DNA of 35,770 nucleotides from a virus. Location: the IMG/VR virus record IMGVR_UViG_3300029431_000015, one strand, 5' to 3'. The position numbers and the translations under genes were made by a program. Below the pieces are notes generated by a model, which was not told where the DNA came from, searched no databases, and saw only the letters and a list, made by a program, of their open reading frames with translations. This document shows, piece after piece, positions 5,103 to 28,073 of this stretch; position 1 is the stretch's first letter; each line of letters opens with the position of its first letter.

Positions 5103-5466
5103 CGCCTATCTGAGCGAAAACGTCTGAAAGCTTTTCAGAGGTTTTGACCTCCGCCTGTATCTTAGCCACATACTCTCCTGTCATTTTATTGAGGGTATCG
5201 ACGGCTCTGATACGGTCAGCAGGGTCATTCTTGCCGTCCTTAGCGATATCTGACAAGAGTGCCTGCCGCTCCTTAGCGGTCATTATACGCTCATCCTGAG
5301 CTTTCTCGGACAGCACACGGATATACTCCGCAACACTAGGATTATCTAGGATTTTGCAGGCGTCAGCTTTCGCATACTTCTCGCTGTATCCTGCCTTTAT
5401 AGCACTCTGAACGGTGTTGCCGCTCTGAGCATAGTATTCTGCAAATTTCTTTTGCCGTGCTGTCAT
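5083..5466 (-). CDS. terS: Terminase small subunit
   Basis: 127 aa. The N-terminus MTARQKKFAEYYAQSGNTVQSAIKAGYS is typical of Terminase_2 small subunits. Confidence 0.85.
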   Translation of the reverse strand: MTARQKKFAEYYAQSGNTVQSAIKAGYSEKYAKADACKILDNPSVAEYIRVLSEKAQDERIMTAKERQALLSDIAKDGKNDPADRIRAVDTLNKMTGEYVAKIQAEVKTSEKLSDVFAQIGGEGLDE

Positions 5467-5489
5467 GAGGGCACCGTCCTTTCTTTAGG

Positions 5490-5524
5490 GGATAATAAAA
5501 GAGAGCACAAATCTGTACTCTCTT
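5490..5524 (-). terminator. Intrinsic terminator after the AT-rich moron
   Basis: On the minus strand AAGAGAGUAC-AGAUUU-GUGCUCUCUU is followed by UUAUUAU. Confidence 0.55.
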
Positions 5525-5544
5525 ATTGAAAACATTCTCTTTAG

Positions 5545-5829
5545 TTACTCAATTTCTTGAATGTATAATTCTAGCATACATGGAATACAAGGTTGAAATA
5601 CTCTTTTGGTTACCCTATAAGTTTTTCCGTTCATCATTGAGATATGGGTTGCAGAATTATACATATTAATTTTGCAATCATCCTCTCCGAATATTAAATC
5701 TTCAAAAAATCCATAATCCAAAGATGTACAGTCTTCATCTCCGGCACGGTATGAATAATCTTTAAGTTTAAGTTCATTGCCATTAACATCATAAGGATGC
5801 ATGAATATTCGAATTGACTTATTTTCCAT
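5545..5829 (-). CDS. Hypothetical protein (94 aa), AT-rich moron
   Basis: ATG at 5829 (MENKSIRIF...) is preceded by GGGGGTGA. The upstream part of the track ORF lacks an RBS. The gene has its own promoter-like and terminator-like signals. Confidence 0.65.
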   Translation of the reverse strand: MENKSIRIFMHPYDVNGNELKLKDYSYRAGDEDCTSLDYGFFEDLIFGEDDCKINMYNSATHISMMNGKTYRVTKRVFQPCIPCMLELYIQEIE

Positions 5830-5850
5830 TTTATCACCCCCGTTGCGTAC

Positions 5851-5879
5851 ATAATACCACAAAAAATTAATCAAATCAA
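5851..5879 (-). promoter_or_regulatory. Promoter-like TTGATT-17-TATTAT upstream of the moron
   Basis: On the minus strand TTGATT lies at 5879..5874 and TATTAT at 5856..5851. A second extended -10, TGATATAAT, lies at 5942..5934. Confidence 0.45.
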
Positions 5880-6195
5880 GTTTTTAATTCTAAGTTCTCT
5901 ACATTGCATAAAACACAATTGTATTTTTTATGCATTATATCAAAAATTCGACATTTATGAACCTTTTGCGACACAACGCAAAAGCGACCGCAAAATGCAG
6001 CCGCCCTTGTGAAAATATTATAAGGAGTTTTGTAAATGGTGGAGCAGATGTTGAGCTGGCACGCTCTCGACCTGCATAGCCCCTTACGGGGCTTAGAAAA
6101 TTGGAGGTGACTTCATGAAAGTACAAGTCTGAGGTACATCTACACTTTCCTCAGTTTAAATTATAACATAGGTAAAACGAACAGAGCGAACAAGT

Positions 6196-8810: not shown

Positions 8811-10337
8811 TCACCCTTTCATTATCCTGTTGAGTATCTGACTTGCTTCAAATTTTGTCAAATTTTCTATGTCGATATCCGAATTGTTGAGATACTTCCT
8901 GCCTCGTCTGCGGATAAGGTTTTTCTGATTATCAGTAGCAGGTGCTTTGCCCCACTTTCGGCAAATATTCAGATCCCACAAGCATTTGCTATCTGCTTCA
9001 CGTTCGCAGAGAATAGTGTACGCCTCGTCAAGTGCTTGTTGCATAGGTAATTTCTGACCTTGCCATACTGCCATGCCCAAAGCGTCAGGTGCAGATATCC
9101 TCAGCGTTTTTCCCTTGCCTAGACTACATTTCATATCGCCATCCGGCAGCTTAAACCAGTTCACGTCATGGGTATTATACTTCTGCTCCTGCGCCCACAA
9201 GTCAACGATACGAACATTCTTTATCCAGCTTTCAGGACAATCCGACATCATAGTAGCCTTTTCAGGAAGTTCAAAGAGCATTCCCTCCATTTTGTCCTGA
9301 CTCTTCTTTGGTAATTCTGAAATGTCAATACCGAGCAAACTTGGAGCTGTTCTCAGACTTGCTTTGCCTGTTACTCCTACGCAGTCGATGAGTGTGAGCC
9401 TGTCCTTGTCAGGGTGCAGCCTCAACCCTCTGCCTACCATTTGCGTATACAATGCATCTGATTGTGTAGGCCTCGCTATGATAACAGTTTCCACAAGGGG
9501 TATGTCAGTACCCTCAGTGAAGACCATGCAATTCACAAGACAAGGTATCTCACGATGAGTAAAACGGCGTATAATATCGGCCCTATCCTTAGTCTGACCT
9601 GTGACCACCTCCGCCCCCTCGATGCGTTTCGCTATCTCGTAGCACTGTTCTACAGATACCGCAAAAATAAGTGTTGCACCTTTGGCGTGTTCTCTATACG
9701 CTTGTGCTATAGCGTCCGCAGTGCCGTCCATTGCTTCTGCCAGCTCACCCGGGGCGTAGTCGCCAAGCCGTGTATGTACCGCTGAAAGGTCATAGCCTAT
9801 GTCAGCACGTTTGCAGAGGATATCACACAGATAACCATGTTCAATGCCCCAACGCAGGTCACGTTGAAATATGATATCATCAAACACATCATTCAGCCTA
9901 CATTTGTCAGCCCTGTTAGGCGTTGCCGTGAAGCCCAGCAGAAGACGTGGTGTGAAGTGATCTATGACAGTTTTATAGCTGTTTGCCGCTGCATGGTGAG
10001 CCTCATCTACTATGATGATATCAAAATCATTAGGTGAAAACCTGTCAAGCCTGTGTGTCATGGTCTGAATACTTGCCGATACCACTTCTTCACTGCCGTC
10101 AGTATGGTACTTTGACATTTCAACACCCTTTGTGCAGTCAAAGTATTTCAGAGGCTGATTTACAAGTTCCTCTCTGTGCGACAAAATGAGCATACGTCCA
10201 TGACGTGGTATATTCGCAAAGGTCACTGTCTTGCCAAGACCTGTCGCCATCTGCACAAGATGCTTTCCCTGCCTTGCCTGCGTTATTTTATCTATACACT
10301 CCTGCTGATAGTCACGGAGTTTTATTCTTGCATTCAT
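8811..10337 (-). CDS. SF2 DEAD/DEAH-box DNA helicase
   Basis: Motif I is ATGLGKT and motif II is IIVDEAHH. The start is placed at ATG 10337 (MNARIKLRDYQ...), downstream of AAGGAGGT. The track extension to 10460 runs through the iteron cluster. Confidence 0.8.
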   Translation of the reverse strand: MNARIKLRDYQQECIDKITQARQGKHLVQMATGLGKTVTFANIPRHGRMLILSHREELVNQPLKYFDCTKGVEMSKYHTDGSEEVVSASIQTMTHRLDRFSPNDFDIIIVDEAHHAAANSYKTVIDHFTPRLLLGFTATPNRADKCRLNDVFDDIIFQRDLRWGIEHGYLCDILCKRADIGYDLSAVHTRLGDYAPGELAEAMDGTADAIAQAYREHAKGATLIFAVSVEQCYEIAKRIEGAEVVTGQTKDRADIIRRFTHREIPCLVNCMVFTEGTDIPLVETVIIARPTQSDALYTQMVGRGLRLHPDKDRLTLIDCVGVTGKASLRTAPSLLGIDISELPKKSQDKMEGMLFELPEKATMMSDCPESWIKNVRIVDLWAQEQKYNTHDVNWFKLPDGDMKCSLGKGKTLRISAPDALGMAVWQGQKLPMQQALDEAYTILCEREADSKCLWDLNICRKWGKAPATDNQKNLIRRRGRKYLNNSDIDIENLTKFEASQILNRIMKG

Positions 10338-10662
10338 TTGATGTTTTTTTACCTCCTTATGTGGGACGTGGGGGACAGTGTGGGACAAACGTCCCACACG
10401 AAAACTATGCGTATTTACGCACTTTTCAGGGTGTTGTGGGACTGTGGGACAAATTCGCACATTTTCCTATATAGGAAAACACACATATATTTTAACAATG
10501 TGTGAACAAAGCCGTGATTCTATATCACCTATTTAAAGCAGGTATATATAGGGGGAAAATGTCCCACAGTCCCACACTATGCAGAAAACCACGCATTTAC
10601 GTTGTTTTCCTCGTGGGACTTATGTCTCACAAAATGCCGAAATCCGATATATCCGTCCCACG
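10338..10662. repeat. Iteron and palindrome cluster (GTGGGAC repeats); candidate replication origin or regulatory region
   Basis: GTGGGAC occurs on the plus strand at 10361, 10380, 10436, 10444 and 10613. Its complement GTCCCAC occurs at 10391, 10561, 10569 and 10655. A variant GTGGGGGAC lies at 10368. A 17-bp perfect inverted repeat pairs 10435..10451 with 10560..10576. An AT-rich palindrome TTTTCCTATATAGGAAAA lies at 10462..10479. Confidence 0.7.
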
Positions 10663-12588
10663 CATTTCTTCTTCGGTGTAATAATCTGGTGTTTCATCTG
10701 GCAATCTCAGCACAACGCACTCAACGTTCACGCCACCGATGCGCTTGCCACGAGTATTGTTGCGCCCTCTCACAAGTATCTTTCCGTTAGATTTCAGCCA
10801 ACTAAGCAACGCCCTTGTGTCGAAGCCCTGTTTTGAAGCCGCTTCATCGAACTTTGAGCGAATGACATATGCGAAATCGCCCTGGATAAGTCCAAACACT
10901 TCACCGTTATTGTCTTCGCCTGTAGCAAAGCGTTTGCTGTTGGACGCCACCCAATCGCACATATACTGATAGCCTCGTTCACCTGCTGATACCGATTTTT
11001 TGGTCTGCAAATACGGTGAGATATCGTCAATTGTTAGTGGCTCATTCGTTTTGAACACGGACGCTTCTGCAATCATATCAGCCGTGAGTATCATTGCCGC
11101 TGCCATTGCCTGTTTCTCTGTTGTATCCGACTTGCAGAGCTTGGTGAAATAATCGTTATAGACCTCTTGTGCCATTGTCAAGGCTTTTTGAGAGGACAGT
11201 TTTGCAACGAACTCTCGCCCTGCAAAGCCATAGTTTTGTTTTATCACTGCTGATACTGCCATGCCGTCTGCTATCACGATATTGTTTGCCGTACATTCAA
11301 TGTCGATAACTCTGTTTACCGCTCCTGCACCTGCTGAACCGCCCACTATGGGGCTTTCGCCTGTGGTAAGGATAGTATTTCGCCATGTCGGTGTACGCTC
11401 TATGCCGCCTGTTTTCGTGCCCCTAGAACGTCCAACACCCTGAGCAAGCTGATAAACGTCAAATCGGCTTCTGCCGTGACTATCTTTGCTCAGCTGGAGT
11501 TCGTCAATGAGAAACGGCAGGCTGTTGAGAAACGCTGCTGTTCGCTCGTGGCCGACAACTGTGCTGTTGAACGTCTGAATGTATTCGCCCATTTCGGGGG
11601 TTCCCCAAACAGAAGCCGCAAGCATTAAAGCAACTGTCTTGCCTGTGCCTGAATCAACGCCCCATAGATGAACGAAGAACGGCAGACCGCCAAGTGGCTG
11701 AATAAGCGCACTTGCGAAGCTCGCCGCAAGAAATATCTTTGCGATCACGCTTTTCCTGCGGCAATCTATAGCGGCTTTTTTCCATTTCTCATAACTGCCA
11801 TGACTTTTTATAGCACTAAAAATGGTGGAATAATTCTGCTCTCCGTCAAATGTCAGCCCCTCAACGTATGGTGAAAAGCCTGCGCCGTTTATGTAGCCAA
11901 GCCTGCCCACTGATCTTTTCAGTGGCAGAGAATTGCGGTTAAGGCTCTCTATCTCCTGAAAGTATGAGACAAGCTCTTTGGCAGTTTCAGAAGATACGTC
12001 AACACCGCATTTAACTAACTGTGAAATGTTTCGGCTGTTGTAAAGTATCTCCTTTGAAACGACTTTTTCCTGCCACTCTCCACGAGTGCGGTAAGCTATG
12101 TTGAGCTTTTCCTCACCTGTGTCAATGTTCTGCAAGCATTCAAAGGGTATGATCGGGTGGTGGCAGATAACGTGATAGTTGCCGCTTTCGTCGATAAGAT
12201 ACACACCGCCGTCATCAACATTGTATTTGCCTGCGTCAAGCTGCATATATGGACCTGAGAACGCAGTGGGGTTATTGATGATAACATTCGCCCCACGCTG
12301 CATTTCTCGCATTTTGACGTAGTTTTTATACAGTCCTTTGAACGTCTTTACACCCACCTCTGCCGCCTGTTGAGCCATTTGCTCAATTTTCAGATTGTGC
12401 ATGAAAGGGTCGTTTTTGTAATCGTATATCGCTTCGTATGGCTTTTCTGTATAGAGGAAATCGTCTTTTGTATACTTTACAGCAACGGCGTTTTTCACCG
12501 CTTCTGCATCGCCCATGTCGATATCAAAATGCTTTTCCTCGTTCACATCAACGTCAATGATATCGTCAGAATGGCGTTCCCTCATCAT
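10627..12588 (-). CDS. DUF927-type (SF3-like) replicative helicase / primase-associated protein
   Basis: Walker A is GVDSGTGKT and a Walker B-like motif is LIDELQ. It is 653 aa, has DUF927-like sequence character, and lies in the replication module. Confidence 0.6.
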   Translation of the reverse strand: MMRERHSDDIIDVDVNEEKHFDIDMGDAEAVKNAVAVKYTKDDFLYTEKPYEAIYDYKNDPFMHNLKIEQMAQQAAEVGVKTFKGLYKNYVKMREMQRGANVIINNPTAFSGPYMQLDAGKYNVDDGGVYLIDESGNYHVICHHPIIPFECLQNIDTGEEKLNIAYRTRGEWQEKVVSKEILYNSRNISQLVKCGVDVSSETAKELVSYFQEIESLNRNSLPLKRSVGRLGYINGAGFSPYVEGLTFDGEQNYSTIFSAIKSHGSYEKWKKAAIDCRRKSVIAKIFLAASFASALIQPLGGLPFFVHLWGVDSGTGKTVALMLAASVWGTPEMGEYIQTFNSTVVGHERTAAFLNSLPFLIDELQLSKDSHGRSRFDVYQLAQGVGRSRGTKTGGIERTPTWRNTILTTGESPIVGGSAGAGAVNRVIDIECTANNIVIADGMAVSAVIKQNYGFAGREFVAKLSSQKALTMAQEVYNDYFTKLCKSDTTEKQAMAAAMILTADMIAEASVFKTNEPLTIDDISPYLQTKKSVSAGERGYQYMCDWVASNSKRFATGEDNNGEVFGLIQGDFAYVIRSKFDEAASKQGFDTRALLSWLKSNGKILVRGRNNTRGKRIGGVNVECVVLRLPDETPDYYTEEEMRGTDISDFGIL

Positions 12589-17945: not shown

Positions 17946-18359
17946 ATGGATAGTGCTGAACTACGCAGCTTTGCGGAGGACAGGGACATTATAGTTATCG
18001 ACGGAAAATTAAGAAATGAGCAGAAGTCCATATCCATTAGCGATAGAGGGCAATGTGCGATTGTGGTAGACCCTAAGAAAATCGCCACGAGAGCAGAAGA
18101 AACTGTCATAATGGCTCACGAGCTGGGGCATTGTGAAACAGGTGCATTTTATAACGAAAGAACGCTGGAGCTTCGTTCTCGAATGGAGTTTCGTGCGGAT
18201 AAATGGGCAATAAAAAAGCTCGTCACAGAGGACGAGCTGATAGAAGCATTTGAAAATGGTATCCTTGAAATATGGGAACTTGCCGAGTTCTTCGGTGTGA
18301 CCGAAGATTTTATGGTCAAGGTCTGTGAATTGTACGGATATTATAACAGGGTGATATAA
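17946..18359 (+). CDS. ImmA/IrrE-family metallopeptidase (anti-repressor protease)
   Basis: It has an HEXXH motif (MAHELGHC). At 137 aa it lies immediately downstream of the XRE repressor, as in ImmR/ImmA modules. Confidence 0.8.
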   Translation: MDSAELRSFAEDRDIIVIDGKLRNEQKSISISDRGQCAIVVDPKKIATRAEETVIMAHELGHCETGAFYNERTLELRSRMEFRADKWAIKKLVTEDELIEAFENGILEIWELAEFFGVTEDFMVKVCELYGYYNRVI

Positions 18360-18426
18360 AAAAAGTCCCTGTCAGCACCGCAAATACTGGCAGGGATAAC
18401 ACACAGAAATTTTTCTGTATGGTTAC
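18357..18426 (-). ncRNA. Candidate small RNA A (about 68 nt), an orphan promoter-to-terminator unit
   Basis: It lies downstream of the 18461..18433 promoter. It contains the hairpin ACAGAAA-AA-UUUCUGU and a terminator UCCCUGCCAG-N11-CUGACAGGGA followed by CUUUUUUU. There is no ORF. Confidence 0.4.
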
Positions 18427-18432
18427 AAATAC

Positions 18433-18461
18433 ATTATATCACCAATTTAAGACATTGTAAA
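18433..18461 (-). promoter_or_regulatory. Promoter TTTACA-17-TATAAT with a TG extended -10
   Basis: On the minus strand TTTACA lies at 18461..18456 and TGATATAAT ends at 18433. Confidence 0.45.
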
Positions 18462-18511
18462 TGATTTCAATAAATTGTTTACAAAAGTCGGTTTATAGGG
18501 AGGAAAAAAAT

Positions 18512-18904
18512 ATGACTTGTCCAAATTGTAAAGGCGAAAACGCACCAGGCGTAGCAGTATGTGAATATTGCGGTCACGAACTGCCGCAGCCGCAGAAAAT
18601 TGATAACCACGTTGAGCATAACAGCAATATCGTTCAGCACATCACATACGTTACAAACGTCCAGCAGGTCGCACCGCAAGCTCCTGTTGAGCAGATAAGC
18701 CCTAAGAGCAAAAGCACAGCTGAAATACTTTGCCTGCTGACCTTTTTAGGCTTGGGTGGTTTGAACAGATTTTATGTAGGCAAAGCTGGCACAGGTTTGC
18801 TGTACTTCTTTACTTTCGGAGGTTTCTTTATTGGAGCAATAGTTGATATGATAAATTTGTTTCAGGGAAACTTCACTGACGCTCAGGGCAGAGTGTTAAA
18901 ATAA
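18512..18904 (+). CDS. Zinc-ribbon plus TM2-domain membrane protein
   Basis: The N-terminus has CPNC...CEYC. The C-terminus LCLLTFLGLGGLNRFYVGKAGTGLLYFFTFGGFFIGAIVD is a typical TM2 domain. ATG at 18512 follows GGGAGG. Confidence 0.75.
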   Translation: MTCPNCKGENAPGVAVCEYCGHELPQPQKIDNHVEHNSNIVQHITYVTNVQQVAPQAPVEQISPKSKSTAEILCLLTFLGLGGLNRFYVGKAGTGLLYFFTFGGFFIGAIVDMINLFQGNFTDAQGRVLK

Positions 18905-18947
18905 AATCCCCTGCTGATACTTCAAATATCAATTAGGAGAAACGTAT

Positions 18948-19976
18948 ATGGGTAAAAAGAAACGCAAATCAGAGCCAGGCTGCATTGCCACTATATTCGG
19001 CTACACAATATTAGCTTGTATTGTATTTACTATTTTTAATTTAGCCAAAACACATCTCTCTACTAAAGCCAAAATAATCATTTTATCGGTTATTGGCATA
19101 CTTCTTATTCTCAAAATATTCGGATTTTTTAATCGAAAATATACAATGTCTCAGCTTGATAATATGGAAGGTCATAGATTCGAATTTGCTTGTGCTGATA
19201 TCTTGAAGATGAACGGCTTTTATGACGTAAAAGTTACACAAGGCTCTGGAGACTATGGCGTCGACATTATTGCAAGAAAAGGTATGCGAAAATATGCTAT
19301 ACAATGTAAATGCTATAGCCACAAACTTGACAATAAACCTATACAAGAAGTAATTGGCGGACTTGCATATTATGGTTGTAATAAAGGCGTTGTTATGACA
19401 AATCAATACTTTACTGAGCCGGCAAAACAGTTAGCAAAAGTTAATGGAATAGAGCTATGGGACAGAAATGTTTTGTCTCATATGACCAAAAGAACAAGCA
19501 AAATAAAAATGCGTCTCAAAAAGGAAGAGCATTTACAAGAGCATAATCCTTCTTCCAAAGCAAAGCAACCAGTTACCGAAACCAACAGCTTTCAAATTTA
19601 TTCTACCCCTAAATATGCAGAAAAAGCTACAATGATGAATGACCTTGATGATTACCCCCGTATTTGTAAAAAGTTCATGAAAGAAAATGCCGAATATATA
19701 GTCTGCTACTATAAAACGACTTTTGATGTAGTTCTAAAATTAGAAAAGATAGATGTTTTATACAAGCAAAATTCAGTTTCATTCGAGTTCTTGCATACGC
19801 CGCAACTTCCTGTAAGCAAGCTAAAAAAGTCGCTTAAAGACTTATCAGAATACATAAGCATTGATAATATTTCATTGCATTCATCTTGCACTACTCCTGG
19901 CTGCTTTGCAATACAAATGCCAATGCCTGATTACTTGGCTAAAACATCCAGGTTTATTGATAAAAATAGTAAATAA
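18948..19976 (+). CDS. Membrane-anchored Mrr_cat-type restriction endonuclease-like protein with an uncharacterised C-terminal domain
   Basis: It has two N-terminal hydrophobic helices. The nuclease core is FEFACADILKMNGF...GSGDYGVDIIA...AIQCKCY (D...QxK). A further 150 aa or so are of unknown function. Confidence 0.7.
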   Translation: MGKKKRKSEPGCIATIFGYTILACIVFTIFNLAKTHLSTKAKIIILSVIGILLILKIFGFFNRKYTMSQLDNMEGHRFEFACADILKMNGFYDVKVTQGSGDYGVDIIARKGMRKYAIQCKCYSHKLDNKPIQEVIGGLAYYGCNKGVVMTNQYFTEPAKQLAKVNGIELWDRNVLSHMTKRTSKIKMRLKKEEHLQEHNPSSKAKQPVTETNSFQIYSTPKYAEKATMMNDLDDYPRICKKFMKENAEYIVCYYKTTFDVVLKLEKIDVLYKQNSVSFEFLHTPQLPVSKLKKSLKDLSEYISIDNISLHSSCTTPGCFAIQMPMPDYLAKTSRFIDKNSK

Positions 19977-20135: not shown

Positions 20136-21317
20136 ATGCTATGTAAAAAATGCCGTAAGGAAATTCCTGACGGCTCTATTTATTGCAACTACTGTGGCAA
20201 GAAGCAGGAAACTACCAAAAGAAAAACACGTCGCAGAGCAAGAGGAACAGGCACGATAAGATACAAGCCTGAATACAAAAACCGCCCATATGTGGTTTTC
20301 AGCCCTCGAACAACGTCCGGCACAGGTGAAAAGTACATCGGCTGCTTCAAAACGGCAGCAGAGGCACAAGCCGCACTTGATAGTTACTTCAACTCTACGC
20401 ACATAGATCACTCCAGCCTAACTCTTGCACAAGCGTATGAGAATTGGAGTTCCGAGCATTTTGAAAGCCTTACAAAGAGTGGTGAGCAGGGCTACAAGAC
20501 CGCATGGAGATACCTTGATAGTATCGCAGGCAGGAAGATGTCAGAGCTTAAAACAGCAGATTATCAGAGGTGCATAACCGAATGTGCCAAACGTTTCAGC
20601 CGTTCGCAATGTGCAAAAATCAAGCAGCTATGCTCACAGCTCTGTAAGTACGCCGCCCAAAATGACATCATAGACAAAAACTATGCTGAATACATAACAC
20701 TTCCAAAAGAGGTTAAGAAAGAGAAAAGAATTTTTACAGCGGAAGAGCTTGAAAAGCTGTGGAAACACTCTTCGGATAGATCTGTCCAAGTCATTTTGTT
20801 TATGATCTACACAGGCTTTCGTATCGGTGAGGTGTTCACGATACTTAAAAAGAATGTCCACCTTGCCGAGAACTACATGATCGGCGGCATCAAGACCGAA
20901 GCGGGCAAGGACAGACTTGTGCCGTTTCCGTCACAGATACCCGAAATAAAGACGTTTGTACAAGATTGGTACAATGAAAGCAAGACAGATTTTTTGCTGA
21001 ATGGAGATGTAAACAATTTCAGAAAACGCAATTTTTACCCTGCACTTGCCGAATGCGGTGTGATACCTGAGCCGACAGTTACAGAGCTAAAAAGCGGCAA
21101 AACGACAAAGAAATATGACACAGAGATAACGCCACATTGTTGCCGTCACACTTTCGCCACCCTCTCAGCAGATTGCGGTATGCAGCCCGAAAAATTACAA
21201 CGTATCATCGGTCATGCCAAGTATGAAACAACGGCAGATATATACAATCACTCAGGGCAGGACGCAAAAGCACTAGCGGAAGAAATGTCAAAGTTAAGAA
21301 AGCCAGTGGAACATTAG
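20136..21317 (+). CDS. int: Tyrosine integrase with an N-terminal zinc ribbon
   Basis: The C-terminal catalytic region is HCCRHTFATL...GHAKYETTADIYNH (R, HxxR, Y). RBS AGGAGG. The N-terminus has CKKC...CNYC. Confidence 0.9.
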   Translation: MLCKKCRKEIPDGSIYCNYCGKKQETTKRKTRRRARGTGTIRYKPEYKNRPYVVFSPRTTSGTGEKYIGCFKTAAEAQAALDSYFNSTHIDHSSLTLAQAYENWSSEHFESLTKSGEQGYKTAWRYLDSIAGRKMSELKTADYQRCITECAKRFSRSQCAKIKQLCSQLCKYAAQNDIIDKNYAEYITLPKEVKKEKRIFTAEELEKLWKHSSDRSVQVILFMIYTGFRIGEVFTILKKNVHLAENYMIGGIKTEAGKDRLVPFPSQIPEIKTFVQDWYNESKTDFLLNGDVNNFRKRNFYPALAECGVIPEPTVTELKSGKTTKKYDTEITPHCCRHTFATLSADCGMQPEKLQRIIGHAKYETTADIYNHSGQDAKALAEEMSKLRKPVEH

Positions 21318-21365: not shown

Positions 21366-21410
21366 TTGGTAAGGACGAGGTCACCGGTTCAAGCCCGGTT
21401 AGCAGCTCCA
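21366..21410 (+). other. attP core: 3' portion of a tRNA-Thr(GGU) gene (anticodon loop through CCA)
   Basis: TTGGTAA-GGACG-AGGTC-ACCGG-TTCAAGC-CCGGT-TAGCAGC-T-CCA reads as anticodon loop (GGT), 3' anticodon stem, variable loop, T arm, 3' acceptor strand and CCA. The 5' half is absent and the upstream sequence is not complementary. It lies directly downstream of int. Confidence 0.6.
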
Positions 21411-21412
21411 GC

Positions 21413-21470
21413 AAAACAGCTATTAAATTGCGTAAATGCGTGGTTTGATAGCTGTTTTTGTTTTGTGTGA
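21413..21470 (+). terminator. Hairpin with a T-run downstream of the tRNA fragment
   Basis: AAACAGCTAT...ATAGCTGTTT (10 bp, long loop) is followed by TTGTTTTG. Confidence 0.45.
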
Positions 21471-21566: not shown

Positions 21567-21607
21567 CAAAAAAAACAGCCGACAGAGAATAATAACTCTG
21601 TCGGCTT
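21567..21607 (-). terminator. Intrinsic terminator ending the hicA-hicB-secB-like operon
   Basis: On the minus strand AGCCGACAGAG-UUAUUAUU-CUCUGUCGGCU is followed by GUUUUUUUU. Confidence 0.75.
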
Positions 21608-21610
21608 TGA

Positions 21611-22039
21611 TCAAGCTTCATCATCCGTAACATCAGTCGAATCAACAAATTCACATGGTGTTAGTAGCGGTGGCATAAATGCCGCTTTCGTTAATTGTGA
21701 AATAACAAAAACAGATTCTGCGATTGAAGTAAAACATAAAGTATTAATTTCCTCGTTATTCCAATTATCGATTTTTTCAACTAATTGCGGAAAATTTTCT
21801 TCTTTAATATCCCATGAAACTAAATATTCAACTGTAATAGCAAAAAGCTGCGGTGGATTCATTGAAATATTTCTGGAAAATACAACTAATAATTTATCAC
21901 CTGATTTACTGAGTTTAGAATGAAAATTATCTGCTACATCAACATTTAATTCATCATTTTCAGTATCTGTTGGTAAGGACTTATATTCAATTTTTTTGAG
22001 AGACAGCTGCGGATTGCTTATAATTTCCTGTAAAACCAT
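21611..22039 (-). CDS. SecB-like chaperone candidate (142 aa, acidic C-terminus)
   Basis: ATG at 22039 follows GGAGGTG. The C-terminal region ISQLTKAAFMPPLLTPCEF parallels E. coli SecB [20 protein letters not shown]. The N-terminal LSLKKIEYKSL parallels FQIQRIYTKDI. It has an acidic tail. The alignment was done by eye only. Confidence 0.5.
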   Translation of the reverse strand: MVLQEIISNPQLSLKKIEYKSLPTDTENDELNVDVADNFHSKLSKSGDKLLVVFSRNISMNPPQLFAITVEYLVSWDIKEENFPQLVEKIDNWNNEEINTLCFTSIAESVFVISQLTKAAFMPPLLTPCEFVDSTDVTDDEA

Positions 22040-22529
22040 TAAATACACCTCCGTTATATGACAAAAAAGTTCTATGACCAACCATTGATCTACTTGTGTT
22101 AACTTTTTCAAAAGCTCTTTCTATATTGGCGGCCTTACAACCTACGGAAAGTACCGGAGAATACATTTTTAAACACTCACTAAATCCGCTTGCTTTTCCT
22201 ACAAATTTACTAAGAGCCAAGTTGATACATTGGTTAATGCTAACGCCCTCAATAATTGAAAGTTCAGCAATTTCACGATGCAAAGACTTTGGTATTCTCA
22301 GTAAAATTTTGCCGCTATATTCAATATTTTTAGTAACGATTTCTTCTGGAATTGGTATGCCATACTTTTTTGAAGTTTTAATGCACTCCTGCTCCAATTC
22401 TTCAAAAAGCTTTAATGCTTCATCTACAGTTTCGCCTTGAGCCACGCAACCTTTTAAGCATTTGCTCTTAATACAATAGAACTCGTGCCCCTCAACTTCC
22501 ATTTTTTGAACATCAAATCCATATCTCAT
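21987..22529 (-). CDS. hicB: HicB-family antitoxin with a C-terminal extension of about 65 aa
   Basis: It has an N-terminal HicB-like domain and an RHH segment, GKILLRIPKSLHREIAELSIIEGVSINQCINLAL. The 4-nt overlap with hicA is typical. The extension overlaps the next gene by 53 nt. Confidence 0.75.
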   Translation of the reverse strand: MRYGFDVQKMEVEGHEFYCIKSKCLKGCVAQGETVDEALKLFEELEQECIKTSKKYGIPIPEEIVTKNIEYSGKILLRIPKSLHREIAELSIIEGVSINQCINLALSKFVGKASGFSECLKMYSPVLSVGCKAANIERAFEKVNTSRSMVGHRTFLSYNGGVFNGFTGNYKQSAAVSQKN

Positions 22530-22777
22530 GTTAATTCCTCCCTTATCATATCAAGCAAATCCTTCAACTGCTTTATGTAAACCTCGCCAACACATTTTCC
22601 GTGTTTTGGAACGGGTATTACATAACCTAATTTAGGATAAACAATTTTGGGATGATTTCCACCACTATCTAAAATACAACCGAAATGCGTCATTACACTA
22701 ACTACTTCATCGAACGTTATATCATTAGGTATAGGTTTATTATAAAACTTTTTCATTGCCTTATCAATTTTTGACAA
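22526..22777 (-). CDS. hicA: HicA-family mRNA interferase toxin
   Basis: It is 83 aa with the HicA-like pattern ...GCILDSGGNHPKIVYP...VPVPKHGK. It is translationally coupled to hicB. The start is TTG 22777 or ATG 22756. Confidence 0.7.
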   Translation of the reverse strand: MSKIDKAMKKFYNKPIPNDITFDEVVSVMTHFGCILDSGGNHPKIVYPKLGYVIPVPKHGKCVGEVYIKQLKDLLDMIREELT

Positions 22778-22805
22778 ATTACAAGCACCGCCTCAAAAGC
22801 TCAAT

Positions 22806-22846
22806 ATGATATTATATATAATATCATTGGTTGAATCGTTTGTCAA
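22806..22846 (-). promoter_or_regulatory. hicAB promoter TTGACA-17-TATTAT overlapped by a perfect 22-bp palindrome (operator)
   Basis: On the minus strand TTGACA lies at 22846..22841 and TATTAT at 22823..22818. The palindrome ATGATATTATATATAATATCAT lies at 22806..22827. Confidence 0.7.
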
Positions 22847-22899
22847 TAGGTTTTATTAAAATAATATGAAAAAAATAATGGCATTTATTCCTTAAGAAC

Positions 22900-22942
22900 A
22901 AAAAAACAGCCGCCTCAGACCCATAAAAGTCCGAGACGGCTG
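22900..22942 (-). terminator. Intrinsic terminator after the lysis cassette
   Basis: On the minus strand CAGCCGUCUCGGAC-N8-GUCUGAGGCGGCUG is followed by UUUUUUU. Confidence 0.75.
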
Positions 22943-22951
22943 AAATTCTAC

Positions 22952-23632
22952 CTACTTAATCTTCTTTGTAATCTCGTCGCTGAGCTTCTTGATGAAGTTC
23001 ACGCCTGCAATGCCATTCTCGCTGTACCCCCACTTTTTCAGCAAGGTATTAACTGCCTTTGCAGTACCTTTTCCGTATGTACCGTTCTTATCCATACCTA
23101 CGTTGTGAAGCTTGACCGCCTTTGCAATAAGCAGCAGCTCCTTGAGCGCAAGCACACCGTTTGTTTTGTTGCCCTGCTTGTAGCCTGTCTTGTCAAGCAC
23201 TTTCGCACTTATCTTGCTCTGGTTCTTTGGTCTCAGGAAGCCTGCAATGTGGTCGTAAGTATGCTTGACCTTAGTGCAAGCTTTTCCGCTCCAGTTTTGG
23301 TCATACGAATAAAAATAACTCGTGTTGCCCTCACCGGTGCAGATTGCTATGTGACCCCAGCCGCCATTCAACGTGCCTGACCATATCGCTACATCACCCT
23401 TTTTCGGCACGAAACTTGGCGTGTTCTTTACCTTTGTGAAATTTGCTTTCAGCCAAGTGTTCTTATCGAATAAATCCCAAAAATGGTGAGCGTCATACCA
23501 GAAATTCTTGATACCTGATCCGAAGACCTCGTTGAAATATGCCGTTGCAAGGTCTACACACTGTTTGCCTGCTGCTCCGTCATAGTCAACGGCTACGCCA
23601 TTGTGCTTCTTGATAAACTCATCGTAATTCAT
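22952..23632 (-). CDS. Endolysin: N-terminal CHAP domain plus C-terminal peptidoglycan-binding domain
   Basis: The catalytic Cys lies in the context GKQCVDL and the His in the context GWGHIAI. The C-terminal NGVLALKELL...GKGTAKAVNTLLKKWG is PG_binding_1-like. It directly follows the holin. Confidence 0.85.
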   Translation of the reverse strand: MNYDEFIKKHNGVAVDYDGAAGKQCVDLATAYFNEVFGSGIKNFWYDAHHFWDLFDKNTWLKANFTKVKNTPSFVPKKGDVAIWSGTLNGGWGHIAICTGEGNTSYFYSYDQNWSGKACTKVKHTYDHIAGFLRPKNQSKISAKVLDKTGYKQGNKTNGVLALKELLLIAKAVKLHNVGMDKNGTYGKGTAKAVNTLLKKWGYSENGIAGVNFIKKLSDEITKKIK

Positions 23633-23634
23633 TG

Positions 23635-24090
23635 TTATTCCTCACTTTCGTTTGTATCCACTTTGTTTTCAACTGTGATTTTAAGCTTGTGTACTATCTT
23701 CACCAAGAATGACGGCAGTGGTATACCTATCACCGCAAGATTTTCCAAGATTGAAATGCACTCGTTGATGATAAACCATACCGTCACGATAAGACCGAAG
23801 TAAAAGCTGACGTTTACTTCAATGCCTATCTGTGAAAGTCCTGAGATAAAGAGCCAATCAAGCACGCCCGACACCGCCACCACAAATATGTAGCCGACCT
23901 TTTTGAAAAGCCCTTTAAGACCGACACGGCTTGACAGCTCGCCCCTGTTCCATGCTTTCCACATACCTGTAATGTAGTCAATGATCATCACAAGCACCAG
24001 AATGACTATAGGTATCGCCATAACACGGAAATACGCTGACAGCCCTGCGGCTATCGCTGATATGATGATTTTTGCTGTGTTTTCTTTCAT
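23635..24090 (-). CDS. Holin (phage_holin_4_1 / toxin-secretion holin family)
   Basis: It is 151 aa with multiple transmembrane helices. The motif IIDYITGMWKAW is typical of this holin family. Confidence 0.8.
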   Translation of the reverse strand: MKENTAKIIISAIAAGLSAYFRVMAIPIVILVLVMIIDYITGMWKAWNRGELSSRVGLKGLFKKVGYIFVVAVSGVLDWLFISGLSQIGIEVNVSFYFGLIVTVWFIINECISILENLAVIGIPLPSFLVKIVHKLKITVENKVDTNESEE

Positions 24091-24236
24091 TACTGTTCCT
24101 CTCTTTCGTATGTTTGTCCCGTGATTGTTGTATACTCCTCAGCCGTGATCCACTTGCCGACGGCGGTGTGCACCATAGCAACCGACCACAAACGGGTGTC
24201 ATAGTATCTCTTGACCTTTGCATAGTTTTTACTCAT
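24090..24236 (-). CDS. XkdX-family small protein (48 aa), not in the ORF track
   Basis: MSKNYAKVKRYYDTRLWSVAMVHTAVGKWITAEEYTTITGQTYEREEQ carries the XkdX hallmark YYD..LW....V...V.KGWIT.EEY..ITG. RBS GGAGGTGA. Its stop overlaps the holin ATG. Confidence 0.65.
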   Translation of the reverse strand: MSKNYAKVKRYYDTRLWSVAMVHTAVGKWITAEEYTTITGQTYEREEQ

Positions 24237-24384
24237 CGCCGCTCACCTCCAACTCAACACCGTTCAACATAGCCAGAAAATCAACATTTGCCTTTATCCT
24301 GTCTATCTCGGTGACCTTTGGTTTGTTGAAATTATCTTCCGTCAGCCCCATGCTCTCAACCATAGATTTTTCTAACTTCGTCAT
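24229..24384 (-). CDS. Hypothetical small protein (51 aa), not in the ORF track
   Basis: Its ATG overlaps the tail-fibre stop (ATGA). RBS AGGAGGT. The translation begins MTKLEKSMVESMGLTEDNFNKPKVTEIDRIKANVDFLAMLNGVELEV... Confidence 0.5.
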   Translation of the reverse strand: MTKLEKSMVESMGLTEDNFNKPKVTEIDRIKANVDFLAMLNGVELEVSGDE

Positions 24385-26516
24385 GTTGTACCTCCTACTT
24401 CACTCAGCTTCACGATATATTCTTCTTCTGACGGCACTGGTATTCTGTAATCATCACCATTGCTGTTTTTAAATGTCACGCTACCCTTTGCCTCAACCTC
24501 AATATTTCGCAGGAAGTCATCTGGTATTAACGATGAAATGTCGGTTACGATAGGGGTTTCCAATTCGTAATATAACATAACGCCCTGCATAGCCTGTTTG
24601 AATGCGGTGGCATCGGTGTAGGCGGTGTCGTTTACATAGACATATCCGTCAATAGTCGCATTGGTTGCTATGCCCACAGGTGCTGCGTCACTCCATACCT
24701 CATTTTGCGATTTTGCTAAATATTTTGAACATAATATATTCGATGCAATAGCAGAATTATACGACAATTTCTGTCCACAAATTTTCCGTGACGATGCTAT
24801 GAAAACTGTCCGGGAGCTAATTCCACCACCAGCAGTCCACGTCAGCGTTCCCAAATCAACGCTGTTCACACACTGAACGTATCGTTTATTTTCATAGTCC
24901 ACGTAGTTTCGTGCCGTTCCTGCCGACCAGCCGTAGCCAGGCAGTGCCTTGATAACTTCGGGTATCTGGTAAACGTTGCGGTGGAAGGGGGCATAGGTTG
25001 TAGGGGTGTCGCCTAGTTCGATCTGGATATCTCTAACTATCACATCTCCAGTGCCTTGTCCATATGTCATCGATAGTGTATCCTTTTGTGTTTTTGGCGT
25101 AAATGTCAATTTTGCGATACCCGTAGTATTCGCAAGAACTCGCTCGCCTTTTGCATAGGAACTTTCAATTCGAGCACCGTCTATTCTAGCTACCCAAAAA
25201 AAGCTAGTTAGTTCAGGCGGAACAGTAGCCTTAAGAGTGGCAACGAGTGTTTTACCTATATATTTTCCGACAGGAATGTTTATGCTTGCAAAACCCATAA
25301 AGTTGTTCACATAACTACCATCAGACTGCTTATATGATACGTAATAGTCATCTGCATTTAGCAAATTCTTTCCCTGCTCAACGACGCTCTCTGTTTCAGC
25401 GCTGACTATTTCGCCGTCAATGACCTCAGAATGACCACCTATCGACTTCACGCTCATCAACTTCGCCCCAGTCGGAACTGTCTTGGCATATGCCGTATCT
25501 GTATCGGTTTCAAATTTATGCGTCACACCCTGACCAATGTCGTACAGTGCATTTACACGTCTTGTCAATTCTTTATCCGTCAGCTTTAGGTTAGCTATTT
25601 CAGCGATTTTTCCGACAGCTGTCACATAATCGTCTGGCAGACTATCAGCTATGGATTGTGCTGTCTGAGCAGCAGTTTCAGCGGCTTTGCGGTCTGTGGT
25701 GACCTGTGCGGCATGGTCTGCCACTGTAGCCTTGTCGGCTGTCACCTGCGTTGCCAACGTCTGCACCGCCTGTCTGTCTGCCGCAGTGCTGTCAGCATTT
25801 GTCTTGGCAGTTTTAGCGTATCCTGACGTTATTGTCTTGTCAGCTTCGGTTTGCTGTGCTGCCGTTGATGCTTGAGCTGCTGATACCTTGGCATCATTCT
25901 GAGACTTGACTGCCTCAGCACGTGCGGTTTCTGCACCCTGCTTGGCTGTTTCTGCCTGTGTTGCGGACGTTTCAGCCGCCGCCTGTGCAGTTTCAGCACG
26001 TTCAGCCGCCTGCGTTGCCGTATCGGCTGATTTCTCTGCGGCTGTGGCAGATTTTTTTGCGTTTTCTGCCGCTGTAGTAGCCGTTTCTGCGGCGGTGACG
26101 GCGGTTTGCATATCTGCGTGTGTCTGCCTGCCTATGGCGTCTATGCGGTCTAGTGCGTCAGCTGCCACACTTGGTGACGGCACGGCATTATCACCTATAG
26201 CCGCACCTATTCTCAGACGGAATATGCGTGATTTTTTAACTAATATATACTCATTGCCTGCTAATTTTTTCGCCGCTATCTGGCAGCTGACTGTCTGCGC
26301 TGACCGCAGTATATCAGCCGTTGGCGTCCACTGTCCGCCTGTGATATCGACCTCGTACTGAACGCCATCACCGTAGTCTATCGTCATTACATAGCGGTCT
26401 GCGCCGTCTACTGTCAGCCCTTCGACCGACACGGGTCTAGCGTTCGTTTCGCCGACGTAGCCCAGCAGGGCTGTGTTCAGTGTTACGTCATAATCTGCAT
26501 TTAATGTTATCGTCAT
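24381..26516 (-). CDS. Tail fibre / receptor-binding protein with an Ala/Thr/Gln-rich coiled-coil shaft
   Basis: A 711-aa ORF lying after the baseplate genes and before the lysis cassette. It has a roughly 170-aa low-complexity A/T/Q/E segment and a distinct C-terminal globular region. Confidence 0.7.
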   Translation of the reverse strand: MTITLNADYDVTLNTALLGYVGETNARPVSVEGLTVDGADRYVMTIDYGDGVQYEVDITGGQWTPTADILRSAQTVSCQIAAKKLAGNEYILVKKSRIFRLRIGAAIGDNAVPSPSVAADALDRIDAIGRQTHADMQTAVTAAETATTAAENAKKSATAAEKSADTATQAAERAETAQAAAETSATQAETAKQGAETARAEAVKSQNDAKVSAAQASTAAQQTEADKTITSGYAKTAKTNADSTAADRQAVQTLATQVTADKATVADHAAQVTTDRKAAETAAQTAQSIADSLPDDYVTAVGKIAEIANLKLTDKELTRRVNALYDIGQGVTHKFETDTDTAYAKTVPTGAKLMSVKSIGGHSEVIDGEIVSAETESVVEQGKNLLNADDYYVSYKQSDGSYVNNFMGFASINIPVGKYIGKTLVATLKATVPPELTSFFWVARIDGARIESSYAKGERVLANTTGIAKLTFTPKTQKDTLSMTYGQGTGDVIVRDIQIELGDTPTTYAPFHRNVYQIPEVIKALPGYGWSAGTARNYVDYENKRYVQCVNSVDLGTLTWTAGGGISSRTVFIASSRKICGQKLSYNSAIASNILCSKYLAKSQNEVWSDAAPVGIATNATIDGYVYVNDTAYTDATAFKQAMQGVMLYYELETPIVTDISSLIPDDFLRNIEVEAKGSVTFKNSNGDDYRIPVPSEEEYIVKLSEVGGTT

Positions 26517-26530
26517 TTAATCACCCCTCT

Positions 26531-26893
26531 TTACTCTATTGCAATATAATCAACATAGTATGTTCCTGTTGGAACGGTTTCCAATGTTGGCCCGTTATTA
26601 GCTCCCATGCAGACACTCATATAGTATGACGTTCCTGACCCATAAACGTGGGTGCAGTAGTTCTGATATGGTGTTGGTGTGTCTGTCTGCCGTAGCGTTG
26701 CTATTACCTGTTTAGGCGCAAAGGTCAGTCCAAGCGGTATCTGCATCAATGGATTCGCTTTCGTCATCTTGTATTCCACAGTGCCATAGTGTATCTTGCC
26801 GGCTCGGCTCAGTATCTCATCGATTTCCTCGCCTGCGTGTTGCATAGGATAGTCGTTGATATCTTGCGCCAATGTCAAATTTTCATCAGCCAT
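26531..26893 (-). CDS. Hypothetical tail/baseplate-associated protein (120 aa)
   Basis: Its RBS is GGGGGG-rich. It lies between the Tal-like and fibre genes. Confidence 0.6.
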   Translation of the reverse strand: MADENLTLAQDINDYPMQHAGEEIDEILSRAGKIHYGTVEYKMTKANPLMQIPLGLTFAPKQVIATLRQTDTPTPYQNYCTHVYGSGTSYYMSVCMGANNGPTLETVPTGTYYVDYIAIE

Positions 26894-26906
26894 TATCTCG
26901 CCCCCC

Positions 26907-28073
26907 TTAAAGCTGTTCTTCTACCGACAGACCTACCGCAGAAATATCAGCACTCAGTCCGCCGTCAAAAGTAAATTCTAAATTTGTTATTGGTATGTCA
27001 TAGCTGTCTGCACCGTTGGTGTAGGTCACCACGTCACCTATGTCGAAACGTGGGTCACCAAGTCTGTGGTATAGCTCAGTGGTGTACCACGAAAATCCAC
27101 CTATCCTGCGCCACAGAGATTGTAGCAAAGACTCTGTCATGTATGGATTTTCAAACTCTAAAACTCTACCCTGCGTTGTATCTGTCACACCAAGCGACAG
27201 CGTTACATCATCACTCACTTTGCAGATAATGCCCACGATAGCGTTCTGCCTTTCAGACAGTGTTGGCAGGTCTATTGTGTTGTTATCAAGCGTTTTCACG
27301 CTCGAGCCGTACCATTTTCGGACGTACCGCCCGAAGCGGTCAACATACCCGAACTGCCCCTGAGCTGAGGCAAGGTAAGACAGCATTTGCCGCATGGTCA
27401 CGTCCTTTGGCACTGAGCTGACCTTGAAATAGAAATACTTTGAGTACAGCACCTTGCCGTTCTTATCTATCAACCTTCTGCCGTTCTTGTCACGCAGTAG
27501 TCGCACCTCTGTGTAGTCATTGCCGTTCTGCAATCCTAATTGTCTGCAAATGTCGTCTTCGACGGCTTTATTCCAGTTTGGCATAGGGATATGCGGTACA
27601 TATGGCTTGTCCGAGAAGTACAGCCTGTCCGCCATTGTCAGCTGGACACTGCCGCCCGACTTTTTCGACTTAACGCAGGTGAAACGTCCCATTGGTATTT
27701 TTTCGTCGCCAAGCATCTCTCCAAGCTTGCTTATCTGCTCCACTGTCAGCTTTGAAAGCTCAGCGTAGGTGTAGGATTCTAGGGTGGAGTAGGTGGTAAA
27801 TGCCGAGCTGTCTTTCATATACAAACTGAAAACATACTCATTCCCAAGATACTTAGTTCCGTCGTCAACCAGTTCCGCCGTCACACTCTGAGAGCAGACA
27901 GCTCCAAGCTCTATATCATCACTTAGAGAGGTTGATTGAATGTCTGTCTGAACGTTCTGAATGCCGTCATATGCCACAGGTTCTCCGCTCTGAACGTCCT
28001 CTATCCACATACCCCACAAGGCTTTGTAACTCTCTATCCTGCTTGTTATCTCATTGCTTGCTATGGTGTACAT
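26907..28073 (-). CDS. Tail-associated (Tal / baseplate hub, Prophage_tail-like) protein
   Basis: It is 388 aa with RBS AGGAGGG. It is the second gene after the tape measure, the canonical Dit-Tal order. Confidence 0.55.
   Translation of the reverse strand: MYTIASNEITSRIESYKALWGMWIEDVQSGEPVAYDGIQNVQTDIQSTSLSDDIELGAVCSQSVTAELVDDGTKYLGNEYVFSLYMKDSSAFTTYSTLESYTYAELSKLTVEQISKLGEMLGDEKIPMGRFTCVKSKKSGGSVQLTMADRLYFSDKPYVPHIPMPNWNKAVEDDICRQLGLQNGNDYTEVRLLRDKNGRRLIDKNGKVLYSKYFYFKVSSVPKDVTMRQMLSYLASAQGQFGYVDRFGRYVRKWYGSSVKTLDNNTIDLPTLSERQNAIVGIICKVSDDVTLSLGVTDTTQGRVLEFENPYMTESLLQSLWRRIGGFSWYTTELYHRLGDPRFDIGDVVTYTNGADSYDIPITNLEFTFDGGLSADISAVGLSVEEQL

Follow-up and report, generated by a model that had tools for sequence, protein, structure and literature searches.

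We analyzed a 35,770-nt stretch of viral DNA (IMG/VR record IMGVR_UViG_3300029431_000015; hereafter the window, with coordinates counted from its first letter), a temperate siphovirus-like genome of about 35 kb. Our subject is a unit of three minus-strand genes that probably encodes a toxin-antitoxin-chaperone (TAC) system: hicA (22526..22777), hicB (21987..22529), and a third gene (21611..22039) whose product is an acidic protein of 142 amino acids (aa). A preliminary description of the window, made from the sequence alone, had listed an 83-aa HicA, a 180-aa HicB, and an acidic 142-aa protein in this order; all three open reading frames (ORFs) were recovered, and the third protein has a net charge of -14. 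The overlap is 4 nt between hicA and hicB and 53 nt between hicB and the third gene, and the three genes form one promoter-to-terminator unit with a terminator at each end. The G+C content of the unit is 33-34% and that of the flanks and of most of the window about 43-47%, a difference that fits horizontally acquired cargo (a "moron").

On its upstream side, the unit is preceded by an intrinsic terminator that follows the endolysin gene (22897..22942, minus strand). This terminator consists of a hairpin (22942..22907) with a 16-pair stem (9 GC pairs) and a 4-nt loop, followed by TTTTTTTGTT (T7), and it insulates the module from late-gene transcription. A second intrinsic terminator closes the operon (21567..21606, minus strand), with a hairpin at 21606..21577 (11-pair stem, 7 GC pairs, 8-nt loop) followed by GTTTTTTTTG (T8); it was also scored as a repeat. 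Both hairpins lie at, or within a few bases of, the positions at which the preliminary description had placed two strong terminators bounding a minus-strand unit. The promoter is of the sigma-70 type, TTGACA-17-TATTAT (22818..22846, minus strand; TTGACA at 22846..22841 and TATTAT at 22823..22818), with 11 of 12 matches and an extended -10 element (TG). The -10 element lies within a perfect 22-bp palindrome (22806..22827, no strand), ATGATATTATA/TATAATATCAT, made of two 11-nt arms with no spacer. Promoter and palindrome are thus as originally described. No longer perfect palindrome occurs in the 35.8-kb window; arms of at least 11 nt arose in 1 of 300 simulations of the whole window and in 1 of 2,000 in which the AT-rich module was simulated. 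The ribbon-helix-helix (RHH) domain of HicB probably uses this palindrome as its operator, through which the operon would repress itself.

Related loci were retrieved through homologs of HicB (L001, L002, L003/L004, and L005-L007) or of the third protein (L008/L009, L010/L011, L012, L013, and L102). Promoters of the TTGACA/TTTACA kind, equivalent to that of the window, were found upstream of hicA in L001, L002, and L003. Operator-like palindromes of the TGATA-N10-TATCA type lie over the -10 element in L001, L002, L003, L005, and L013, and a different palindrome occupies the same place in L008 and L010. These shared palindromes support autoregulation via the RHH domain.

The product of hicA, translated from a TTG start, is probably a member of the HicA toxin family, as judged by Pfam PF07927 (E = 2e-5; 25 bits, slightly below the curated cut-off of 27 bits) and by PHROG 8887, annotated "toxin" (E = 6.6e-7). 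Homologs at the hicA position in L008, L010, and L013 have precomputed HicA_toxin matches. HicA is predicted to be an mRNA interferase. A sequence search with HicA against the Protein Data Bank (PDB) yielded noise and no HicA match; matches to PPR repeats in the PDB searches with HicA and HicB were set aside as noise, one DEALKLFEE-like segment having matched repeatedly. The HicA motifs GGNH...PKHG...IKQL align by eye with the GSNH...PRHP...LKQL of E. coli HicA, with GGNH as the candidate for the catalytic histidine motif of the family; this alignment does not serve as a test. In all eight loci with a readable start, hicA begins with TTG or GTG (the window, at 22777; L001, where the start was read by hand in a six-frame translation; L002, L003, L005, L008, L010, and L013), and hicB begins with ATG. 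This conserved weak start codon would keep translation of the toxin low and bias the toxin-to-antitoxin ratio.

HicB matches Pfam PF05534 over residues 69-106 (36 bits; curated cut-off, 21 bits) as well as the HicB-like and Arc-like families of PHROG, and public sources label exactly this protein a HicB family antitoxin. A sequence search of HicB against the PDB returned only noise. Full-length alignment with 120-aa HicB proteins delimits a core of residues 1-111 (22197..22529, minus strand), comprising the HicB N-terminal domain and the RHH DNA-binding domain. The remaining residues, 112-180 plus the stop codon (21987..22196, minus strand), form a C-terminal extension that is a candidate chaperone-addiction tail resembling the chaperone addiction domains (ChADs) of TAC antitoxins, and the third gene overlaps its final 53 nt. 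The tail beyond the RHH domain measures about 67-69 residues, close to the approximately 65 extra residues overlapping the third gene that had been described after a HicB fold and RHH segment.

The tail is not an artifact. The exact 180-aa HicB was found on 347 contigs from independent assemblies, and all 15 cluster variants that were read are 180 aa long, with 3 variable positions in the tail and 11 in the core. Because the protein is identical in 347 contigs and its length is invariant among the variants, the extension is not a product of a frameshift or sequencing error, a possibility that the preliminary description had itself raised and that is now excluded. When nine HicB proteins linked to a third gene were aligned with the 120-aa relatives, the boundary of the tail was sharp: the short proteins stop directly after the second RHH helix, and each of the nine that precede a homolog of the third gene carries a tail of 48-69 residues. 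Almost no sequence is common to these tails, and published ChAD regions are likewise highly variable in length and composition (PMC5105189). The tails have a net charge of +2 to +7 in eight of nine cases, and their aromatic fraction (0.07-0.19) exceeds that of the acidic cores (0.05-0.11) in eight of nine. The third proteins, in contrast to the basic tails, have net charges of -4 to -14. The tail encoded in the window has a net charge of +6, is 12% aromatic, and ends in a 39-residue run free of acidic residues that contains RTFLSYNGGVFNGFTGNY. SecB favors stretches rich in aromatic and basic residues (PMC6377645), and TAC chaperones recognize aromatic patterns in ChADs (bioRxiv 10.1101/2024.02.24.581848); the pairing of basic, aromatic tails with acidic third proteins fits both preferences.

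The ATG of the third gene lies 7 nt after a GGAGGT ribosome-binding site. A longer, 166-aa reading of the same frame from a TTG was rejected, because the homologs start at this ATG, which has the ribosome-binding site. The protein gave no meaningful match in Pfam, NCBIfam, PHROGs, or PADLOC. Searched alone against PDB sequences, it had no match, and a search with the profile of its family found no SecB. A word-indexed homolog search with the third protein returned only its own cluster; when the full set of 1.84 billion cluster representatives was scanned with HMMER, 35 clusters were retrieved at E ≤ 1e-3, nearly all of them 130-148 aa in length. The third protein belongs to a small family of proteins of about 135 aa, and the family alignment (A1) has invariant residues D37 and R56 and a C-terminal motif of the PLITPP type. 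A 203-aa protein with a precomputed PF13707 (RloB-like) match, P0054, matched the family profile over part of its length (E = 8.5e-14); it may be a fusion or represent a different context for the same fold.

We modeled the third protein with AlphaFold2 (AF2) on alignment A1, without templates and with no recognized SecB sequence in the alignment. The model was confident, with a predicted local distance difference test score (pLDDT) of 90.4 and a predicted template modeling score (pTM) of 0.84, and has the topology β1-β2-β3-β4 followed by helices. Foldseek comparison of the model with the PDB gave 22 matches at E ≤ 1e-3, all of them to SecB or SecB-like structures (probability, 1.00; template modeling [TM] scores, 0.44-0.66). 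The best match was Rv1957, the TAC chaperone of Mycobacterium tuberculosis, in complex with a ChAD peptide (5MTW; 5mtw_D; E = 2.4e-6; TM score, 0.63/0.65). Next were SecB from Haemophilus influenzae and E. coli (TM score, about 0.6), followed by the streptococcal SecB-like structures 2HNG and 2O2A. In the viral structure library BFVD, the best match is a phage protein named SecB, and others of that name are among the leading matches. The preliminary description had called the third protein SecB-like and had made this claim depend on structural similarity, which the modeling bears out, with SecB and SecB-like folds as the sole matches at E < 1e-3.

The resemblance could in principle be incidental, with the third ORF encoding an unrelated small α/β protein (for example, one related to hot-dog folds) or being misannotated, and with the HicB extension arising from read-through or a frameshift. 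The third protein has no family, defense-system, or PDB sequence match, a single-sequence AF2 model was poor (pLDDT, 43), and hot-dog folds do appear among the weak Foldseek matches, as would be expected on this explanation. However, hot-dog folds, the next unrelated fold retrieved, enter only from E = 0.025 with TM scores below 0.3, compared with E values of 1e-6 to 1e-4 and TM scores of 0.5-0.65 for SecB, and a hot-dog fold was rejected on these grounds. The 35 homologous clusters with conserved D37, R56, and PLITPP motif, the confident alignment-based model, the GGAGGT ribosome-binding site ahead of the ATG, and the unvarying 180-aa HicB all stand against this explanation as well. It is already contradicted by these results, and we consider it highly improbable. 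That the locus encodes HicAB together with a linked SecB-fold protein is, conversely, a conclusion we hold with high confidence.

The third protein is linked to SecB at the level of the modeled fold only. The preliminary description had pointed to parallels by eye between its sequence and E. coli SecB, and these found no statistical support in Pfam, in the scan of the family with PF02556, or in profile-profile comparison with hhalign. The missing sequence link should not be given too much weight: with PF02556, Rv1957 itself reaches 17.2 bits, under the cut-off of 26 bits. As a calibration, a phmmer search with E. coli SecB as the query likewise failed to detect Rv1957. Even established TAC chaperones are thus barely within reach of sequence comparison. 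The protein also lacks the marks of a housekeeping SecB: PF02556 gives no signal, and the gene is tied to a phage hicAB rather than to a sec or housekeeping context.

We then examined how consistently the three genes occur together. In the retrieved loci, a gene of approximately 80-100 codons (hicA, where the contig reaches it) is followed by a HicB of 158-173 aa and a protein of 119-143 aa without a Pfam match. L012 is a 1.1-kb contig on which hicB is cut short and hicA is not reached. A HicB of 158-180 aa was encoded immediately upstream of the third-protein family member in 10 of 10 loci examined, with overlaps of 1-53 nt (1-26 nt in the related loci). The third gene was absent beside both 120-aa HicB relatives that were examined (P0045 and P0047; n = 2). 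These observations agree with the earlier proposal that tail and third gene belong together. The contexts of the trio are unrelated to one another: in one locus it follows a GH25 lysin gene, and in others it precedes terminase genes, faces an amidase-holin cassette, follows rplT on a chromosome, or adjoins a flagellin gene. The trio is therefore conserved as a unit in phages and chromosomes, and the variety of its surroundings indicates that it moves as one. Megablast found no match to the module among GenBank phages. The stretch of dual coding between the hicB tail and the third gene is 53 nt in the window (21987-22039), 26 nt in L012 (454-479), and 1-11 nt elsewhere, and hicB of the window stops nine codons later than hicB of L012.

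These patterns bear on whether the third protein serves HicB at all. An alternative is that the SecB-fold protein is not an antitoxin chaperone and that HicAB is an ordinary two-component toxin-antitoxin pair. The third protein would then hold a phage or host protein, act as a second regulator or adaptor of HicA, or sense phage proteins without stabilizing HicB, and the tail of HicB would serve for docking or regulation, not for addiction. Such a role would sit well with the lack of sequence homology to known SecB-type TAC chaperones and with a Gram-positive host clade in which no SecB export pathway is known (PMC3581621); moreover, the streptococcal structures 2hng and 2o2a, which also match the model, were deposited as proteins of unknown function. 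It accounts less readily for the strict co-occurrence of the third gene with tailed HicB proteins and overlapping frames in 10 of 10 loci from unrelated contexts, for the absence of the third gene at the short HicB proteins (2 of 2), and for the way in which tail and third protein complement each other in charge and aromatic content. We regard this alternative as unlikely, though clearly less so than an incidental resemblance.

The reading we favor is that of a phage-borne, self-contained tripartite TAC module of the HicAB type, in which HicB would be addicted to its chaperone; we consider it probable. The gene order is toxin-antitoxin-chaperone, as first described, in a co-oriented trio with one promoter, one terminator, and overlapping genes. 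The antitoxin has a C-terminal extension of about 68 residues that is missing from two-gene or solitary relatives, the third protein is modeled with a SecB-type structure, and, as in the HicAB family, a HicB with an RHH domain (PF05534) is encoded downstream of hicA.

Several observations weigh against this reading. Homology to SecB at the sequence level was not found among the family members checked: PF02556 gave no match at E ≤ 1 in any of the 31 aligned. Comparison of A1 with E. coli SecB, with Rv1957, and with a narrow Enterobacterales SecB profile by hhalign gave a probability below 1% in each case; the profile was narrow in that the contig scan seeded with E. coli SecB returned only Enterobacterales orthologs of at least 89% identity (effective sequence number [Neff], 1.45). 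A TM score of about 0.6 with a root-mean-square deviation of about 4 Å denotes the same fold, but a distant one. The Pfam score of HicA, as noted, is slightly below the curated cut-off. The 53-nt overlap of hicB and the third gene is unusually long relative to the 1-26 nt of the other loci. Finally, the stretch of the tail that is best conserved with the closest relative, L012 (GG..NG...NY), coincides with the GGAGG ribosome-binding site and ATG of the third gene, and dual coding, instead of chaperone binding, may be what keeps it conserved.

If the module works as a TAC system, HicA would be a ribosome-independent, mRNA-cleaving toxin that is poorly translated from its TTG start, and the N-terminal domain of HicB would neutralize it. 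The RHH domain of HicB would bind the palindrome over the -10 element and thereby repress the operon. The basic, aromatic-rich tail would leave the antitoxin prone to aggregation or degradation unless it is held by the acidic SecB-fold protein. Were the chaperone titrated away or lost, HicB would decay and HicA would shut down translation. Structural proteins of an incoming phage could titrate the chaperone, which may double as their sensor. For the lysogen, the outcome would be superinfection exclusion by abortive infection, stabilization of the prophage, or both.

HicAB-containing TACs have been described since 2012 (PMC3581621), and one of them, Mmet-TAC, has been validated experimentally (PMC5105189). 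Mmet-TAC, from Methylomonas methanica MC09, comprises HicA (Metme_2813), HicB (Metme_2812), and a SecB-TA chaperone (Bordes et al. 2016, PMC5105189). It shares with the window the toxin-antitoxin-chaperone order, a HicAB pair with an RHH-type HicB, a SecB-fold chaperone, and an antitoxin extension of about 40-70 residues without conserved sequence (residues 119-159 form the ChAD of Mmet-HicB). Mmet-TAC is chromosomal, however, and its gammaproteobacterial host also has a housekeeping SecB, whereas the module of the window resides in a temperate phage of gut Clostridia. The module further differs from Mmet-TAC in its candidate chaperone without PF02556 signal, in the N-terminal extension and TTG start of its HicA, and in the 53-nt overlap between hicB and the chaperone gene.

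The TAC of M. tuberculosis, HigB1-HigA1-SecB-TA (Rv1955-Rv1956-Rv1957; structure 5MTW; PMC6377645), follows the same operon logic and has an acidic chaperone, Rv1957, the structure that the model of the third protein matches best. It is a chromosomal system of an actinobacterium and a HigBA pair with a helix-turn-helix antitoxin, and Rv1957 shares 13-14% sequence identity with the model of the third protein and has no significant hhalign relationship to it. The antitoxin tail confers chaperone dependence in M. tuberculosis, a dependence that we infer for HicB of the window. Classical HicAB systems (for example, E. coli HicAB and Treponema denticola TDE0482-0481) resemble the window in that hicA lies upstream of hicB, HicB has an RHH domain, and a palindromic operator lies over the promoter. 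They differ in that HicB has no C-terminal tail and there is no third gene, a state that the 120-aa P0045 and P0047 illustrate.

Prophage TACs defend against phages (bioRxiv 10.1101/2024.02.24.581848; PMC11618068). The E. coli prophage systems HigBAC (strain NT1F31) and CmdTAC (Mets et al. 2024, bioRxiv 10.1101/2024.02.24.581848; Vassallo et al., PMC9519451, PMC11618068) are, like the module of the window, accessory cargo, theirs being located in a variable prophage locus. Their toxins are an RNase (HigB) and an ADP-ribosyltransferase (CmdT), their hosts are proteobacteria, and PSI-BLAST searches started from a SecB-like query led to their chaperones. In these systems, the chaperone is the sensor of incoming phage proteins (bioRxiv 10.1101/2024.02.24.581848; PMC11618068). 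By analogy, defense of the lysogen with the chaperone as phage sensor would be the likely biological role here too. Defense was demonstrated for HigBAC and CmdTAC, and a role of the present module in antiphage defense, drawn from the comparison with these two systems, is a tentative assignment.

The preliminary description had considered a HicAB-type TAC on a phage noteworthy. The TAC reading is supported by our results, but the module is less novel than was implied: HicAB-type TACs and prophage-borne TACs had already been published, and the module therefore extends an established concept without introducing a new one. What is new is an unannotated chaperone sequence family that is undetectable with PF02556, a host range of gut Clostridia and their phages, and a few small peculiarities: a hicB that overlaps the third gene by 53 nt, a toxin gene starting with TTG, and a location next to an attP site in a tRNA-Thr sequence. 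TAC systems are the best-understood case of a chaperone gating a toxin-antitoxin switch. To our knowledge, all published TAC surveys began from SecB sequence similarity. The module indicates that searches of this kind overlook SecB-fold chaperones linked to HicAB, which are present in temperate phages of Clostridia abundant in the human gut. It also offers a compact three-gene candidate cassette for defense or addiction in a clade with few characterized phage-defense systems, and a very divergent new pair of chaperone and tail for studying the evolution of ChAD recognition. A bolder and rather speculative extension is that these proteins form an unrecognized clade of SecB-fold chaperones, invisible to PF02556 and dedicated to the HicAB systems of Clostridia and their temperate phages, that acts as the phage-sensing part of Gram-positive abortive infection by TACs. 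If so, chaperone-gated toxin-antitoxin immunity would extend from Proteobacteria and Actinobacteria to the dominant Firmicutes of the human gut.

The genome that carries the module encodes a minor capsid protein, a holin, a CHAP endolysin, and a tyrosine integrase, and integrated copies also carry an XkdX gene. The same gene of the module was found on four IMG/VR contigs (34.7, 35.3, 36.8, and 6.5 kb), and the source names of the sequences point to two Clostridia of the human gut, Hominimerdicola aceti and Ruminococcus bicirculans, as hosts. Six long bacterial contigs place the module at the end of the phage cargo, behind the endolysin gene and ahead of attR, with host genes following. The core of attP (21366..21412, plus strand) is the 3' part of a tRNA-Thr(GGT) gene and lies 165 nt from the stem of the operon terminator (21577). 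The homology of integrated prophages to the window stops at 21366, and ARAGORN detected a complete tRNA-Thr(GGT) spanning the junction in L014 (6630-6705), the 3' 47 nt of which correspond to window positions 21366-21412; together, these observations identify the attP core as the 3' end of tRNA-Thr. ARAGORN found no tRNA in the window itself. The tRNA fragment is followed by a terminator-like 20-pair hairpin with a T-run (21413-21458). In lysogens, the host tRNA is completed at attR by this fragment; integration thus takes place into tRNA-Thr, with the phage supplying both the end of the tRNA and a terminator-like hairpin. The location of the module next to attP had been part of the preliminary description and agrees with the end of homology inside this phage-completed gene.

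On the other side of attP lies the tyrosine integrase gene (20136..21317, plus strand; PF00589, 58 bits), whose product has an N-terminal zinc ribbon (PF13240, residues 3-23). L018, a prophage variant, departs from the window over the neighboring lysis region (L018 1-5088 against window 22963-27501): its endolysin is of the GH25-LysM type, its small lysis genes are not those of the window, and its tail fiber, also different, measures 848 aa. Its TAC module and att region, by contrast, are 99% identical to those of the window. The cassette at the end of the prophage is therefore conserved amid mosaic exchange, a breakpoint of which lies at the terminator that precedes the module.

Upstream of the integrase gene, a low-GC (35-41%) stretch of the plus strand (17946-19976) contains three genes, encoding an M78/ImmA-like peptidase (17946-18359), a protein that combines a zinc ribbon with a TM2 domain (18461-18904), and a 342-aa restriction endonuclease-like protein of the Mrr_cat type (18948-19976; PF04471, E = 7e-32). 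The Mrr_cat protein may be a second defense cargo of the lysogeny region. Further low-GC patches at 5401-6000 (34%) and 601-1200 (37%) may be other inserted cargo; a 109-aa ORF within the former (5545-5874) had no Pfam match. The second-longest perfect palindrome of the window (10462-10479, 9+9) lies at the junction of the ORFs at 8811-10460 and 10627-12588.

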